Virus record (IMG/VR): IMGVR_UViG_3300032893_000039
Coordinates: 1,820-65,819 of that record
Direction: 5' to 3' (one strand)
Source: a virus
Lineage: Duplodnaviria; Caudoviricetes
Length of the DNA stretch: 64,000 nucleotides
A program made the translations under genes and the position numbers. Each line of letters opens with the position of its first letter. Positions within the stretch are counted from its first letter, which is position 1. Under the pieces are notes generated by a model. The model ran no database searches. It was given only the letters and a program-made list of their open reading frames with translations, and was not told the DNA's origin. Shown here one piece after another: positions 7,824-61,939 of the stretch.

Positions 7824-8260
7824 TCTGCGGTCAGTCGCCAAGCGTCTGAGCGGCAGAAGTCTCCAGTAGAGACAGGAAGTAATCTTAGCGTAAATAGCGC
7901 ATGAGGGTGTCAGAGCAAAGCGAACAAAGGTTGCGTCTGATAACTTCTTACTTCTGGCAATTTCTTACCTAATCTGCCGATAGTGACTTTCGACGGGGGT
8001 TAGGCAGTTAGTACCTTAGCGAAAGTATCGCCTCACTCGCATTGCTAAGGGAATGTCCCGGCTGGTAGTAATCATTCCCCTGAGCCCTGCTACCAGCCGG
8101 GATTGAAATTAGAGTTAACCTACTGTGTGGACATATCTTTTTAGGTATGAAAAACACTAGCGTTACGACGTTAAGATCAGACAACGAAAGTTAACTTGAT
8201 AGATTACGGTTTATTAAGTTGGATATTGAAAAATATCTACCTGCTAGTAGGTTATCAAGA
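7824..8260 (+). ncRNA. unclassified structured non-coding region (series of hairpins and multibranch elements)
   Basis: No ORF; many stems, e.g. GGAAGTAA/TTACTTCT, CCTAATCT/GGGTTAGG, CCTTAGCGA/TTGCTAAGG, 15-bp stem 8056-8102, CTTGATA/TATCAAG. Confidence 0.5.
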
Positions 8261-8303
8261 TTAGAGTAGTTCAGTATGCGACACCCTGGATTGCTTTGAT
8301 AAG

Positions 8304-8366
8304 TGGATGACGTAGAATTCAGTTACTTCTTTGGATGATGAAAACTGAACTTCGCCTATTTCTCCA
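8304..8366 (+). ncRNA. Y-RNA-like unit 1 (minimal; short apical hairpin)
   Basis: TGGA-T-GA-CGTA-GAATTCAGTT ... AACTGAACTTC-GCCTATT-TC-TCCA. Confidence 0.75.
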
Positions 8367-8401
8367 GGCTAGGTTTAGAAGAAAACGCAGTGATATTTAT
8401 T

Positions 8402-8486
8402 AGTCCGATGACGTAGTAAACAATTTCATCTTCCTGCTAAGAAGTGGCTTCGGCCGTGAATGTTGTTTACGATTTTTTCTCGGACT
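8402..8486 (+). ncRNA. Y-RNA-like unit 2 (anticodon-arm-like payload, loop CTGCTAA)
   Basis: AGTCCGA/TCGGACT closing stem, same GA-T-GA-CGTAG motif, GTAAACAAT/GTTGTTTAC stem, three-way junction. Confidence 0.8.
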
Positions 8487-8499
8487 TTTTATCTTTCAA

Positions 8500-8577
8500 T
8501 GTCGATGACGTAGTTTAGAGTTACTTCGCTCGCCACACTTTGAGCACAAATACTCTAGACGATTTCTTTTCTCGGCA
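8500..8577 (+). ncRNA. Y-RNA-like unit 3 (short hairpin payload)
   Basis: TGTCGA/TCGGCA closing stem, motif, GTTTAGAGT/ACTCTAGAC stem, GCTC/GAGC hairpin. Confidence 0.78.
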
Positions 8578-8586
8578 CAAGTAAAG

Positions 8587-8719
8587 GGCGGATGACGTAG
8601 TAAAGGGTTACTTCTGGGAACTGTGGGTCGGTGGTTCGAGTCCATCACATTACTTCGGTAGTGTTAGCTCAGTTGGGAGAGCGACAGATATTGTTCCCTT
8701 TGCGATTTATTTCTCCGCC
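8587..8719 (+). ncRNA. YrlA-like Y RNA unit 4 with circularly permuted class I tRNA-like domain
   Basis: GGCGGA/TCCGCC stem; T arm GGTGG-TTCGAGT-CCATC, acceptor-like stem ACATTAC-TTCG-GTAGTGT, then D arm TAGCTCAGTTGGGAGAGC. Confidence 0.88.
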
Positions 8720-8725
8720 AGTGAT

Positions 8726-8866
8726 TTAGTGAGGGATGACGCAGTAGAAAGTTACTTCTTCGAGCAATCGAAACGCAGGTTCGAATCCTGCCGAAAGTAT
8801 TACTACTTTCGTGGCTGAGCGGTTTAAAGCGCACGTTACTTTTTACGAATGTTTCTCCCTCACTAA
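8726..8866 (+). ncRNA. YrlA-like Y RNA unit 5 with circularly permuted class II (Ser/Leu-like) tRNA domain
   Basis: TTAGTGAGGGA/TCCCTCACTAA stem; variable-arm hairpin TTCGA-GCAA-TCGAA, T arm GCAGG-TTCGAAT-CCTGC, stem CGAAAGTA/TACTTTCG, D arm TGGCTGAGCGGTTTAAAGC. Confidence 0.88.
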
Positions 8867-8913: not shown

Positions 8914-10239
8914 ATGCGCACAAATAATCCTTTTCATACTCCGAAAGTATTCACCCATGAAGGTGCGCCGGCTGTGCTGCATCGAACTGCGGAACAGCAA
9001 TTGCGCCGTAGTGTGCTTTCTTGTCTACTTTGGGAAGATGAATTCTACGAAGATGGGCAAGAAATCGGCAAGAGGATTGTGGATTTAGCGGGAAAGGTGG
9101 AGATTGGGAAGTTGGCAGCGTTGGCAATTGAGGCACGGCAGCATTTCAACCTTCGCCATGTTCCGCTGGTACTTCTTCATGTCCTGGCCGAGAGAGGTAA
9201 GGGCAGTTCTATTGTACCGGATACTTTTCCAGAAGTGATCCGGCGCGCGGACGAATTGGCGGAATTCTTAGCGGTTCATCAGAAGCTTAGCGGAACCGCT
9301 AAAGTAAAGCTTACTCATGGAATTAGAAAAGGATTGGCGAAAGCTTTCGCTCGCTTCGATCAGTATCAGCTTGCGAAGTACAACCGTGACAATGCAATTA
9401 AGCTAAGAGACGTATTGCGTCTTGTTCACCCGAAACCGTGCGATGCGGAGCGTAGTAATGTTTATAAAATGCTCAACGAAGGAACGTTACCCAGCCCGGA
9501 TACTTGGGAAGTAGCACTTAGCGGCGGCGCGGATAAGAAAGAAACCTTTGAGCGGCTTATCCGTGAAGGTAATCTTGGTTACTTGGCCCTACTGAGAAAT
9601 CTGCGGAATATGGTACAGGCGGGGTGTGACCTTAATTTGGTTAGGGAAGCAATTGTTGCGAGGAAGAATGGGGCGGAAAAAGTACTGCCGTTTCGCTTCG
9701 TGGCGGCGGCGAGAGTTTGCCCGCAATTGGAGCCCGAGCTTGACAAGGCGCTTTGTGAGAATATCAACTTGCTTCCAAAGTTGAGTGGTACTTCTGTTGT
9801 ACTGGTTGATGTCAGTGGTAGTATGGATGCGAGGCTGAGCGTAAGAAGCGATTTAATGCGAATTGATGCAGCGGCGGCCCTTGCTAGTATTATCAACGGA
9901 AGCTGTCGAGTATTTAGCTTCTCTGATAATCTTGTTGAGTGCCCGCCCCGTAAGGGTATGGCGGGCGTGGATAGTATTATTAGAAGTCAGCCGCATCGTA
10001 GTACTTTTCTTGGCAATGCAGTAGGGTTGATTAATCAGGAAGTACAATATGACCGGCTCATTGTTATCAGTGATGAGCAAAGCCATGATAGAGTGCCTGA
10101 CCCGATTGGAAAGGGCTATATGATTAACGTGGCGAGTAATAAGAATGGTGTGGGATATGGGAAGTGGGTACATGTTGACGGCTTCTCTGAAAGCGTGATA
10201 CGCTATATCTACGAGTTGGAAAATCAAGCAAGGGAGTAA
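8914..10239 (+). CDS. rsr: Ro60/Rsr-family TROVE + vWA RNA-binding protein
   Basis: THEGAPA start, LLWEDEFYEDG, RADELAEF, FDQYQLAKYNR, LRDVLRLVHPKP, TWEVALS, ALLRNLRNM, VLPFRF; MIDAS DVSGSM and ISDEQ; GGAG SD before ATG 8914. Confidence 0.95.
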   Translation: MRTNNPFHTPKVFTHEGAPAVLHRTAEQQLRRSVLSCLLWEDEFYEDGQEIGKRIVDLAGKVEIGKLAALAIEARQHFNLRHVPLVLLHVLAERGKGSSIVPDTFPEVIRRADELAEFLAVHQKLSGTAKVKLTHGIRKGLAKAFARFDQYQLAKYNRDNAIKLRDVLRLVHPKPCDAERSNVYKMLNEGTLPSPDTWEVALSGGADKKETFERLIREGNLGYLALLRNLRNMVQAGCDLNLVREAIVARKNGAEKVLPFRFVAAARVCPQLEPELDKALCENINLLPKLSGTSVVLVDVSGSMDARLSVRSDLMRIDAAAALASIINGSCRVFSFSDNLVECPPRKGMAGVDSIIRSQPHRSTFLGNAVGLINQEVQYDRLIVISDEQSHDRVPDPIGKGYMINVASNKNGVGYGKWVHVDGFSESVIRYIYELENQARE

Positions 10240-17374: not shown

Positions 17375-18148
17375 ATGTCTCTTCCTATCGAATTTCTCAA
17401 CCTTACAGAAGATCAAATTGCGGCGCTTCCACCTTTGGAACTGGCGAAGCTCTTAGCGGTTATTGAGGCAGAGCAGAAGATACAAAGTCAGACACTTCTG
17501 TATCGTCTCTTTCCAGAAACTGGTCCACTTTCTCGTCACAAGTATCCAAAGCATATGGAGTTTTTCAAGGCTGGAGCTTTACACCAAGAAAGAGCCTTTA
17601 TTGCCGCAAATCGCATTGGTAAAACAATGGCCGCTTGTTATGAACTTACTTGTCATATGACGGGCTTCTATCCAAAATGGTGGGAGGGTCGGCGCTTTTA
17701 CGAAGGTAATACAGCTTGGGCCAGTGGTGAAGACAGTAAGGCAGTACGTGAAAGTCTTCAACAGACCCTCCTAGGAAAGCCCGGCGAACCTGGAACTGGT
17801 CTAATTCCCGCTGATAATATCATAAACATCACTCCCCGCAGCGGCGTGCCTGATGCAGTAGATACAGTAAGTGTAAAGCATTGCTCTGGTGGAACGTGGC
17901 GCTTAGTTTTCAAGTCCTATGACCAAGGCCGAGAAAGCTTTCAGGCTTCCAAGGTTGGCGTAGTTCTCTTCGACGAAGAACCGCCGCAGCCAATTTATAC
18001 TGAAGGTCTTACTCGTACTATGTCCACCCACCCCGGCGAGCCCTCTGGATTAGTACTTTGTACCTTCACTCCCCTAAAGGGTCTGAGTGGAGTAGTACTT
18101 AGCTACATGCCGGGCGGCCAGAGATTAGAAGGGGCACTTCCAAATTAG
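17375..18148 (+). CDS. terL: terminase large subunit, ATPase part
   Basis: AANRIGKT Walker A, FKSYDQGRESFQ, VLFDEEPP Walker B, TFTPLKG coupling motif. Confidence 0.92.
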   Translation: MSLPIEFLNLTEDQIAALPPLELAKLLAVIEAEQKIQSQTLLYRLFPETGPLSRHKYPKHMEFFKAGALHQERAFIAANRIGKTMAACYELTCHMTGFYPKWWEGRRFYEGNTAWASGEDSKAVRESLQQTLLGKPGEPGTGLIPADNIINITPRSGVPDAVDTVSVKHCSGGTWRLVFKSYDQGRESFQASKVGVVLFDEEPPQPIYTEGLTRTMSTHPGEPSGLVLCTFTPLKGLSGVVLSYMPGGQRLEGALPN

Positions 18149-18932
18149 TAAATATGTTGTCTTCGCTACTTGGGATGATGTGCCACATCTATCAGAAGAT
18201 GCGAAGGCTTCGCTTGTTTCTTCGTATATGCCAAATGAGCGCGCGGCCCGAACAAAAGGTATTCCGTCACTCGGCGCGGGCGCAATCTACCCAGTAGAAG
18301 AAGATGACATTACTTGCGAGCCCTTTATCATCCCAGCCTATTATAAACACGTCTACGGTCTTGACGTAGGTTGGAACCGTACTGCTGCGATTTGGGGTGC
18401 ATTAGACACTGAAACTGACATTCTTTATCTCTACTCTGAATATTATCGAGGCGAAGCTGAGCCCCCAATTCACGCAGAGGCTATCAAAACTAGAGGTAAA
18501 TGGATTCCAGGGGTAATTGACCCTGCCTCCCGTGGCCGAGGTCAAGGTGATGGTAGTAGGCTTCTATTTTCCTATCAGGAACTCGGTCTTAATCTAGTTT
18601 CCGCCTCCAACGCTGTTGATGATGGTATCTATCGCATTTGGACCCGCCTTTCCACCGGACGCCTAAAGGTTTTTTCTTCTTGCACTAACTGGCTTGCTGA
18701 ATATCGAATCTATCGTCGAGATGAGAAGGGTAAGATTGTTAAAAGCAATGACCATTTAATGGATGCGACAAGATATCTTATTAACTCTGGCCTTCCTCTC
18801 GCCAGCCTTCGCCCCTACGATGAATGGGCCGGGCGTCCCGGAGCCCTCCCACGCTCCAGAATTAACAAGATGAAAGTTGACTACGACCCCTATCCCGACC
18901 CGACGGCCCATCTTAGTAATACTATTCATTGA
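18144..18932 (+). CDS. terL: terminase large subunit, RNase H-like nuclease part (separate reading frame; start uncertain)
   Basis: Frame open from 18129 (..ISKYVVFATWDDVPHL); GLDVGWNRTA, IDPASRG, DHLMDATRY. Confidence 0.88.
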   Translation: MSKYVVFATWDDVPHLSEDAKASLVSSYMPNERAARTKGIPSLGAGAIYPVEEDDITCEPFIIPAYYKHVYGLDVGWNRTAAIWGALDTETDILYLYSEYYRGEAEPPIHAEAIKTRGKWIPGVIDPASRGRGQGDGSRLLFSYQELGLNLVSASNAVDDGIYRIWTRLSTGRLKVFSSCTNWLAEYRIYRRDEKGKIVKSNDHLMDATRYLINSGLPLASLRPYDEWAGRPGALPRSRINKMKVDYDPYPDPTAHLSNTIH

Positions 18933-61220: not shown

Positions 61221-61296
61221 TGGTAGTAGCGGCAGGGCTCGAACCTGCAACTGGACCTTTATGAGAGGCCGGTTCTACCAGTTGAACTACGCTACT
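61221..61296 (-). tRNA. tRNA with CAT anticodon (elongator Met or Ile2)
   Basis: AGTAGCG/CGCTACT acceptor, loop CTCATAA, GGTTCGAGCCC, CCA; lacks initiator hallmarks. Confidence 0.92.
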
Positions 61297-61305
61297 ATTA
61301 GCATT

Positions 61306-61389
61306 TGGTCCCAACACCCGGACTCGAACCGGGACGGCACAGCCGAGAGATTTTAAGTCTCTTACGTCTACCAATTTCGTCATGTTGGG
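61306..61389 (-). tRNA. tRNA-Leu(TAA)
   Basis: CCCAACA/TGTTGGG acceptor, AGAGA-CTTAAAA-TCTCT, variable arm, GGTTCGAGTCC, CCA. Confidence 0.93.
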
Positions 61390-61390
61390 A

Positions 61391-61939
61391 TTACAATTCA
61401 CTTTTATGCTTTTCATCTTTTTCAAGAGTTTTCTTGAATAGAGTTTTTGAAGCGGTGTGATAAATAACAATTCCTTCGGGTTTCATAAAACCAGGCGCCG
61501 CAACGCTGCCGTTTTCTTTCAAGAAAAGCAATGCTTGCTTCATACCTTTAAATACACCAAATTCCTCAATTAAGCCTTGATAGAGAATTGGTACAACTCT
61601 GCAACACTTTGGCCGAATTGCATCGTCACTCCACCTATGAGTGTTGAATAGTGAGAATGCCTTTTCGGTCATAGAGTAGTTGCGTTGAATGCCGTGGCCC
61701 CACCATTCACCGAAATGGTGGCCTGGGCCTAGTTTTAATAGTTCATTTCTATTCGCATATGCCCATTTGGCAAAGCCAAAGTTATCATCTTCTGGAGTAA
61801 TCCAACGGGTACGAGAGCCGACTAGAAAAGTACCATCACTTTCGTCAATATAAATACTGGCATTAGTACCGTCTAGCTTTTCAGTAATTATACATTCCCG
61901 TGAAAAGCGTGAGATTTTAGGAAATTCAATAAAGTCCAT
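61391..61939 (-). CDS. ATP-dependent RNA ligase (Rnl2-like nucleotidyltransferase domain)
   Basis: TEKLDGTN (I), SRTR (Ia), FGEWWG (III), FSLFN (IIIa), EGIV (IV), FKK (V). Confidence 0.85.
   Translation of the reverse strand: MDFIEFPKISRFSRECIITEKLDGTNASIYIDESDGTFLVGSRTRWITPEDDNFGFAKWAYANRNELLKLGPGHHFGEWWGHGIQRNYSMTEKAFSLFNTHRWSDDAIRPKCCRVVPILYQGLIEEFGVFKGMKQALLFLKENGSVAAPGFMKPEGIVIYHTASKTLFKKTLEKDEKHKSEL

Follow-up and report, generated by a model that had tools for sequence, protein, structure and literature searches.

A minimal Y-RNA-like unit with an anticodon-arm look-alike in the Ro60 locus of a phage

The Ro60 locus and its array of Y-RNA-like units

The window, meaning the whole 64,000-nt stretch of viral DNA analysed here, contains Pfam matches to a T7-type head-tail connector, the major capsid protein GP7, a terminase, a family A DNA polymerase and an RNA-ligase family protein. 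The large terminase lies in two adjacent ORFs on the plus strand, Terminase_6N at 17375-18145 and Terminase_6C at 18180-18929, with a gap of about 35 bases between them, and could represent a split gene, a frameshift or the result of a small intervening element. The RNA_ligase family protein (PF09414, E 1.9e-16; 182 aa, 61394-61939, minus strand) is encoded next to tRNA-Met (61221-61296) and tRNA-Leu (61306-61389), both on the minus strand and two of the three tRNA genes of the phage. It may serve tRNA repair in a phage that also encodes Ro60 and tRNA mimics.

The gene of main concern here, rsr, encodes a 441-aa ortholog of Ro60 (Rsr) with a TROVE domain (Pfam E 1.2e-18) and a vWA domain, whose matches are weak and below the Pfam cut-offs. 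Relatives of the protein at 40-69% identity are present across viral, metagenome and genome collections. The 610 bases upstream of rsr are occupied by five tandem Y-RNA-like units on the same strand, for all of which the rsr product is the presumed partner protein. The features of the locus, with the evidence for each, are as follows.

8304..8367, plus strand: unit 1, short Y-RNA-like hairpin unit (repeat family D1; covariance model R1)
8402..8486, plus strand: unit 2, minimal Y-RNA-like unit (sequence, fold, descriptor, covariance model R1)
8500..8577, plus strand: unit 3, Y-RNA-like unit with a one-hairpin payload (fold, descriptor, covariance model R1 with 36.4 bits, E 2.7e-07)
8587..8719, plus strand: unit 4, YrlA-type unit with a class-I tRNA-like elbow (Rfam, covariance model R1, fold)
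8731..8861, plus strand: unit 5, class-II-type tRNA-like unit (fold with z = -4.65, serV alignment, descriptor)
8914..10239, plus strand: rsr, Ro60 (Rsr) ortholog, TROVE plus vWA, 441 aa (Pfam, translation)

All five units have in common the sequence GAUGACG(U/C)AG, an inner stem and GUUACUUC, in unit 2 replaced by AUUUCAUCUUC, after which comes a payload that varies from unit to unit. The payload is followed by the return of the inner stem, a 3′ loop of the ACGAuuuUUCUC type and the outer stem. In unit 1, the GAUGACGUAG motif and GUUACUUC lead into an imperfect hairpin with the loop UUUGGAU, which recurs in 6 of the 278 distinct units described below, and the unit is matched by covariance model R1 at 8303-8369 (36.2 bits, E 3e-07). 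The payload hairpin of unit 3, GCUCG...UGAGC, has a loop of 8-10 nt that is not anticodon-like. Unit 4 holds a T arm (GGUGG-UUCGAGU-CCAUC), a closed acceptor hairpin with a UUCG loop and a D arm, and is devoid of an anticodon-like hairpin; it is matched by Rfam YrlA RF02553 with 32 bits (E 7.9e-05), where the gathering score is 69, and by covariance model R1 with 32.8 bits. In unit 5, the place of a variable arm is taken by a GCAA-capped hairpin directly adjoining the T arm, T, acceptor-like and D elements are present, and the D-arm region is identical to that of Escherichia coli serV in 17 of 22 positions. This unit gives weak YrlA and tRNA matches in Rfam and is not listed by covariance model R1 at E up to 1. 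Given its likeness in the variable arm and the D arm, the Ser-like class-II features of the array reside in unit 5 and are separated from the Ser(GCU)-like loop, which belongs to unit 2.

Searches with standard tools returned little from the array. At the gathering threshold, Rfam had no match anywhere in it, and at permissive E-values there were weak YrlA matches at units 4 and 5 only. ARAGORN and Rfam RF00005 found three tRNAs in the window, none of them inside the array. A blastn comparison of the array with 50,697 phage records gave no match, and scans for promoters and terminators gave nothing exceeding the shuffle level. Contigs from three wetland DNA runs were identical to the window across the array, and they consequently offered no natural variation; among RNA sequencing runs, none was found to contain the locus. 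One wetland sample held a second contig, aligned at window positions 8665-8793, with a different Y unit (…GTTTCATCGCCTGTTAAGCGAGAGGT…) and the Asn-like loop CUGUUAA, which indicates another Ro60 phage or bacterium in that sample. Upstream of the array, in the region 7900-8110, a further TTACTTC is located at 7948 and is preceded by a GGGTGTCAGAG-type motif. This site, at which covariance model R1 gives no match, may be a degenerate sixth unit, and a long near-perfect hairpin is found 3′ of it at approximately 8058-8104 (CCCGGCTGGTAG...CTACCAGCCGGG).

Sequence and predicted fold of unit 2

Bacterial and phage Y RNA genes are located no more than about 2 kb from rsr and mostly share its strand. 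Unit 2 agrees with this, since 428 nt separate its end from the downstream rsr start at 8914 and both are on the plus strand. Its sequence at 8402-8486 reads as the earlier note on this DNA had written it. The minimum-energy fold has -25.5 kcal/mol (z = -2.69), and 3 of 200 shuffled sequences fold equally well. Its scaffold consists of two helices, S1 (AGUCCGA/UCGGACU, 7 bp) and S2 (GUAAACAAU/GUUGUUUAC, 9 bp), separated by a 7-nt/9-nt internal loop with UGACGUA on the 5′ side and GAUUUUUUC on the 3′ side. The payload is closed by UUCAU/GUGAA and carries hairpin 1, CUUC-CUGCUAA-GAAG (8430-8444), and hairpin 2, GGC-UUCG-GCC (8446-8455). The three-way junction drawn in the earlier note coincides exactly with this minimum-energy fold, which is only marginally favoured: in the partition function, pair probabilities are 0.76-0.99 for UUCAU/GUGAA, 0.67 for hairpin 2 and 0.44-0.53 for hairpin 1, and a rival fold with pairing across both hairpins lies 0.3 kcal/mol away, at -25.2 kcal/mol. 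With a hairpin 1 probability of about one half and such a close rival, energy alone leaves the structure of unit 2 unsettled.

The loop of hairpin 1, CUGCUAA, is the anticodon loop of the E. coli K-12 serV tRNA-Ser(GCU), as had been claimed for the bacterial tRNA, and the identity extends to the 9-mer CCUGCUAAG. The loop fits the anticodon-loop positions Y32, U33, R37 and A38, and its stem, with a pair probability of about 0.5, has 4 bp where an anticodon stem has 5. The serV gene was taken for this comparison since some tRNA-Ser(GCU) calls in the related loci turned out to be Y units. Three of the eight such ARAGORN calls, all with CTGCTAA, correspond to the units of loci L022, L119 and L137 and were dropped from the tRNA reference set, and a fourth, in L165 (TTGCTAA), also overlaps a unit. 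At unit 2 itself ARAGORN and Rfam called no tRNA and no family; no T-loop or D-loop motif was found, RF02553 gave no match at E up to 10, and snoRNA-type Rfam matches over the unit (E 5-8) were taken as chance.

Near the 5′ end of Y RNAs, the published Ro-contact motif is GNCGAA(N0-1)G, as given by Chen et al. (2014, PMC4201824). The corresponding site of unit 2, GACGUAG, has U in place of the first A, and binding of this variant by Rsr is a prediction. The same variant occurs in four of the five units of the window, unit 5 having GACGCAG, and the canonical CGAAG form is kept in some related loci, e.g., L006.

Relatives of unit 2 in other Ro60 loci

Scans gave roughly 1,600 relatives of rsr (481 viral, 579 metagenome and 589 genome stretches), and 257 of the loci were fetched with their flanks and analysed: 17 viral, 80 metagenome, 80 further viral and 80 from bacterial genomes, the last mostly of Alphaproteobacteria and Acidobacteriota. 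Units were located with an anchor-based descriptor written in Python, used instead of a strict first descriptor and a loose regular expression, which were too strict and too noisy, respectively. The descriptor searches for units made up of an outer stem, a 5′ loop, an inner stem, an anchor, a payload and a return. It insists on the anchor motif and on outer stems without mismatches, and may be wrong in about 5% of its hits. Applied to 177 loci and the window, it gave 307 hits on the plus strand (278 distinct) vs. 16 on the minus strand, which served as control. The 80 genome loci gave 139 hits vs. 5 in the same control, adding 134 new distinct units, for a total of 412 in the window and the 257 related loci. 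Where the start of rsr is known, 189 units are positioned upstream of it and 6 inside or downstream.

Covariance model R1 was built from 18 mini units, i.e., units with two hairpins in the payload like unit 2, which is itself a seed member (57.7 bits). Compensatory changes were observed at 15 of the 16 consensus pairs, a count that refers to the scaffold only, as the payloads with hairpins 1 and 2 are not alignable by MAFFT. Within the window, the model matches units 1-4 with E from 5.8e-13 to 2.4e-06 and one further place outside the array at E 0.9. In the 80 further viral loci there were 217 matches at E up to 1e-3, all of them on the strand of rsr, and the same strand holds all 13 matches in two cultured phages. 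Caulobacter phage CcrPW (MH588545.1, L260 344-1536) has 8 units upstream of its Ro60 gene, one of which is a mini unit, and Xanthomonas phage MET23-P3 (OK913680.1, L259 825-1420) has 5. No RNA gene is annotated at either array, and that of CcrPW is overlapped by an annotated 42-aa hypothetical ORF on the opposite strand.

Two further units, L004 2273-2411 and L015 2132-2268, bear on the Ro60 handle a tRNA-like domain in the normal order of D arm, anticodon-like arm and T arm, so the handle can bear both permuted and unpermuted tRNA bodies.

A hairpin in the register of an anticodon arm

The hairpin that follows UUACUUC was examined by register-based counts, on which the statistics rest, since whole-payload minimum-energy folds are noisy and were computed without tetraloop bonuses. 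A T-loop motif is present in 133 of the 278 units, and in these elbow-bearing units we counted 5-bp stems with a loop of L nt ending 4-5 nt before the T stem, the place at which the anticodon arm of a tRNA comes to its end. For L = 7, the stem was perfect in 31 of the 133 units and had at least 4 of 5 pairs in 60, while loops of 3-6 and 8-10 nt gave 0-7 perfect stems and shuffled sequences a mean of 3.0 (maximum 10). The 60 in-register loops have Y at position 1 in 50 cases, U at position 2 in 53, R at position 6 in 55 and A at position 7 in 45, and the spacer from the hairpin to the T stem is mostly (G)AGGUC, that is, a variable loop of about 5 nt. When the register was fixed and all 133 units were taken without selection, 56.5% of cells were paired vs. 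46.4 ± 1.6% after shuffling, a level that 0 of 500 shuffles reached, and 40-50% were paired when the partner was slid; the covariation score in the fixed register was 0.328 vs. 0.214 ± 0.019.

In units without a T loop, a perfect 4-bp stem with a 7-nt loop occurs in the anchor register in 33 of 145, other loop lengths give 5-16 of 145, and shuffles a mean of 9.2 (maximum 17). In the 134 bacterial-genome units used for replication, the T-loop class showed 15 of 70 perfect stems for L = 7 vs. at most 4 for other lengths, and replication in units without a T loop was weak (10 of 64 vs. 3-7). The hairpin is present in a minority of units, about 40% of the elbow-bearing ones and about a quarter of the others. 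Furthermore, 22 ARAGORN "tRNA" calls overlap units, and most of them use the hairpin as the anticodon arm (cloverleaves were inspected for L119, L137 and L132).

The comparison of loops in homologous arrays that the earlier note had proposed was thus carried out, and the 7-nt YU-NNN-RA form is kept and enriched over other loop lengths and over shuffles. These counts support the assignment of hairpin 1 of unit 2, by its sequence and register, as an anticodon-arm look-alike. Two other claims of that note need revision. Its statement that YrlA RNAs have no anticodon loop holds for Salmonella YrlA as described by Wang et al. (2018, bioRxiv 10.1101/312249), but 60 of the 133 elbow-bearing units analysed here have a look-alike. 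For the same reason, unit 2 did not acquire an anticodon arm instead of an elbow; it retained the arm and dropped the elbow.

Recurrence and change of the loop sequences

Among the 278 units, 6 have CTGCTAA within the initial 24 nt of their payload, where 0.12 would be expected from the background rate of the loci. The six occurrences have six different stems and extend over several kinds of units: the mini units of the window and L012, a bare hairpin in L148, and elbow-bearing units in L119, L137 and L022. One more case is present in the bacterial-genome set. Other recurrent loops are CUGUUAA, CUUGUAA, UUUGGGA, UUUGGAU and CUUGAAA.

Once units called by ARAGORN had been removed, 14 of 42 in-register loops were identical to a real anticodon loop among the 142 distinct tRNAs of the same loci. 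In 2000 permutations, column-permuted loops gave 4.5 ± 1.9 identities (maximum 11) and triplet-permuted loops 6.2 ± 1.9 (maximum 13). The excess over triplet-permuted loops tilts slightly towards mimicry or towards repeated copying from tRNAs.

The middle triplet was compared in 37 pairs of related elbow-bearing units that are at least 75% identical across a reference part made up of the T arm and another 40 nt. In these pairs, which are not independent of each other, differences per site were about as few in the hairpin stem (0.19) as in the reference part (0.18), rose to 0.40 at the outer loop positions (1, 2, 6 and 7) and reached 0.71 in the middle triplet. The form of the loop is therefore kept while the triplet is nearly free, which argues against a conserved role specific for Ser(GCU). 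Such a change of the triplet fits equally well with a free, unconstrained triplet and with a fast-changing specificity element. A related observation comes from alphaproteobacterial genomes, where the near-identical mini units starting at L250 166 and L252 729 have the loops CUGAAAC and CUGUCAC, which differ at the middle positions only, with the stems and the second hairpin kept.

The mini class and its second hairpin

The 412 units are divided into 203 with a T loop, 97 with a payload shorter than 28 nt (many of them the hairpin alone), 58 long ones without a T loop and 54 with a payload of 28-62 nt. Half of the last group (27 of 54, and 27 of 412 overall) have two hairpins like unit 2 and form the mini class. 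Their hairpin-1 loop is most commonly 7 nt long (9 of 27), followed by 6 nt (5 of 27), with other lengths ranging from 3 to 9. Hairpin 2 ends in a tetraloop in 18 of the 27, and 16 of these tetraloops are UNCG or GNRA; two near-identical units, in L153 and L167, differ in having UUCG and GAAA, respectively. Some mini-class units have a 7-nt loop in hairpin 2, and a T-arm-like second hairpin is found in L001 2196-2293 and L009 2254-2343, which suggests that the cap stands for a reduced elbow.

In the earlier note, hairpin 2 was placed where the variable arm of tRNA-Ser would be. The position agrees, as the hairpin starts 1 nt after the stem of hairpin 1, but the hairpin itself is a generic UNCG/GNRA cap that in other mini units also occurs after non-Ser loops. 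Loops of many kinds are followed by such a cap, and hairpin 2 is therefore no variable arm of the Ser type. The elbow-bearing units with CUGCUAA in L119 and L137 have a short AGGUC variable loop.

Interpretation of unit 2

Taken as a whole, the sequence comparisons indicate that unit 2 probably encodes a true Y RNA at this phage Ro60 (Rsr) locus and represents a mini subclass that recurs in related loci. Unit 2, its four neighbours and hundreds of units from related loci share a covarying two-helix scaffold. Its 5′ motif, G-N-C-G-U-A-G, is one base off the published GNCGAA(N)G, and on the 3′ side it has a loop of the ...UUC type that is rich in U. Hairpin 1 would be the homologue of the anticodon-arm look-alike of elbow-bearing units, while hairpin 2 would be a structural UUCG cap that replaces the variable loop, T arm, closed acceptor stem and D arm of the larger units. 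Rsr is predicted to bind the scaffold, and the RNA of unit 2 could then gate the Ro60 ring or tether Ro60 to a partner. Because no elbow is left in unit 2, such a partner would read only the anticodon-stem-loop-like surface. Modification enzymes, anticodon nucleases and PNPase are candidate readers. Neighbouring units would offer other surfaces, making unit 2 one of several adaptor surfaces in the array.

Current thinking favours an elbow-recognising protein as the reader of the tRNA-like part of bacterial Y RNAs (Wang et al. 2018, bioRxiv 10.1101/312249). Units of the unit 2 type keep the anticodon-arm look-alike without the elbow, and so offer another candidate surface for recognition, one that lends itself to a test of its own. 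Many elbow-bearing relatives carry the arm in the exact register of a tRNA, where published models have a variable arm or no anticodon loop. The unannotated arrays in the cultured phages CcrPW and MET23-P3 open this question to experiment.

It is also conceivable, although we consider it unlikely, that the hairpin was inherited from a tRNA ancestry of Y RNAs, as in the dimeric-tRNA model, and has no anticodon-specific function. Unit 2 would then be a reduced YrlA, a generic YrlB-type RNA gating Ro60 or tethering PNPase via single-stranded loops, and its loop sequence would be irrelevant. Short Y RNAs without a tRNA domain, described beside YrlA in three bacteria (Chen et al. 2014, PMC4201824), point in this direction, as do the complexes that phiLo Yrl1 and Yrl2 form with Ro60 and the host PNPase according to the available description (PMC12135203). 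Likewise, the loop triplet is near-random between related units, and the intermediates in L001 2196-2293 and L009 2254-2343 have the hairpin and a T-arm-like hairpin only. An unconstrained relic should, however, lose the 7-nt length, the U at position 2 and the R-A at positions 6-7, and these are kept across the classes and in the replication set. Stems also change by compensation while identical loops recur. The mini class, moreover, keeps a stable UNCG/GNRA cap, with one swap of UUCG to GAAA (L153/L167), and looks maintained rather than decayed.

A special case of the preferred reading, that of a genuine Y RNA of the mini subclass, assigns to the look-alike the role of an anticodon decoy, as the earlier note had supposed, or of a sensor. 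When bound to Ro60, the look-alike would be a target for binding, cleavage or modification by anticodon nucleases or tRNA-modifying enzymes of the host, and the unit would soak up these enzymes or report their activity, thereby protecting phage translation. A bare anticodon stem-loop is an acceptable substrate for several anticodon nucleases. The loops reproduce real anticodon loops down to the combination of triplet and flanking positions (14 of 42 vs. 6.2 ± 1.9 when triplets are permuted), an RNA-ligase family gene adjoins the tRNA genes of the phage, and no part of related units changes faster than the triplet, as would be expected of a specificity element in an arms race, but an absence of constraint gives the same fast change. 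Triplets are also diverse and differ within arrays, with 0 of 8 within-locus pairs sharing the triplet and 0.43 expected, yet this sample is too small to be interpreted. The same units are present in chromosomes of Alphaproteobacteria and Acidobacteriota, possible prophage sites included, and only about 40% of elbow-bearing units and a quarter of the rest have the hairpin, both of which speak against such a role. From sequence comparison, this special case appears slightly less likely than an inherited hairpin devoid of anticodon-specific function.

More speculative, and in our estimate a little less probable again, is a wider proposal in which the Ro60 loci of many phages and soil bacteria would be libraries of anticodon-arm mimics on a common Ro60-docking handle, with the triplet aiming the Ro60 particle. 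Such libraries would range from a bare anticodon stem-loop, through a stem-loop with a cap as in unit 2, to complete circularly permuted tRNAs. The fast-changing triplet would direct Ro60 against host enzymes with anticodon specificity, e.g., defence nucleases that cut tRNAs, or shield tRNAs from them.

Finally, the comparative counts disfavour an ordinary small hairpin with an accidentally anticodon-like loop, which we regard as very improbable: the YU-NNN-RA form is expected in about 1 in 64 random 7-mers and hairpin 1 has only 4 pairs with a probability of about 0.5, but CUGCUAA was found in 6 of 278 units vs. 0.12 expected, in-register 7-nt loops are enriched and real anticodon loops are in excess.

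Comparison with known systems

In a full-text literature search, no anticodon stem-loop mimic was found described in Rsr-linked Y RNAs; two reviews (PMC10870794, PMC6047535) fell outside its scope and may bear on the matter. The tRNA-Ser(GCU) of E. coli serV has, like unit 2, a hairpin 1 nt past the stem that closes the shared 7-nt loop and the 9-mer named above. It differs from unit 2, which has a stem of 4 bp and is devoid of D arm, T arm and acceptor stem.

In Salmonella Typhimurium and Mycobacterium smegmatis, Rsr binds the YrlA (RF02553) RNAs, which are Y RNAs with a likeness to tRNA (PMC4201824; bioRxiv 10.1101/312249, as described there). Like YrlA, unit 2 lies beside rsr on the same strand, and its ends would form a protein-binding stem with the GNCG(A/U)A..G motif. 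Likewise, a conserved YUAY-type motif leads into the effector module, here UUAC of UUACUUC with the variant UUCAU in unit 2. On the other hand, unit 2 has no T arm, D arm, closed acceptor stem or RF02553 match. In the account of Wang et al. (2018, bioRxiv 10.1101/312249), YrlA is without an anticodon loop and an elbow-binding effector is expected; the published YrlA model draws the upstream hairpin as a variable arm, whereas the hairpin described here has the geometry and loop sequences of an anticodon arm. Under the dimeric-tRNA origin model cited by the same authors, an anticodon arm is expected immediately before the variable loop and the T arm on the 5′ side, and the position of the hairpin fits this prediction.

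Each of the three bacteria that Chen et al. (2014, PMC4201824) studied has, next to YrlA, short Y RNAs that lack a tRNA domain. Unit 2 resembles these YrlB and Yrn2-type RNAs in being a short RNA of an Rsr locus that lacks an elbow and lies next to a tRNA-like sibling. In Thermus phage phiLo, Yrl1 and Yrl2 are located upstream of the phage Ro60 gene and form complexes with Ro60 and the host PNPase (PMC12135203), and unit 2 is likewise phage-encoded and upstream of a Ro60 gene. For YrlB, Yrn2 and phiLo Yrl1/Yrl2, which were compared by their published descriptions, those descriptions mention no three-way junction or anticodon-like loop in the parts that concern these RNAs. Among the published Y RNAs covered by these sources, Deinococcus radiodurans Yrn1 is the only one drawn with a "potential anticodon arm", having a 5-bp stem (Chen et al. 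2014, PMC4201824). Yrn1 differs from unit 2 in its 6-nt loop and in the order of its modules, with the arm placed between the T and D elements, and in the view of the same authors Yrn1 and YrlA evolved independently.
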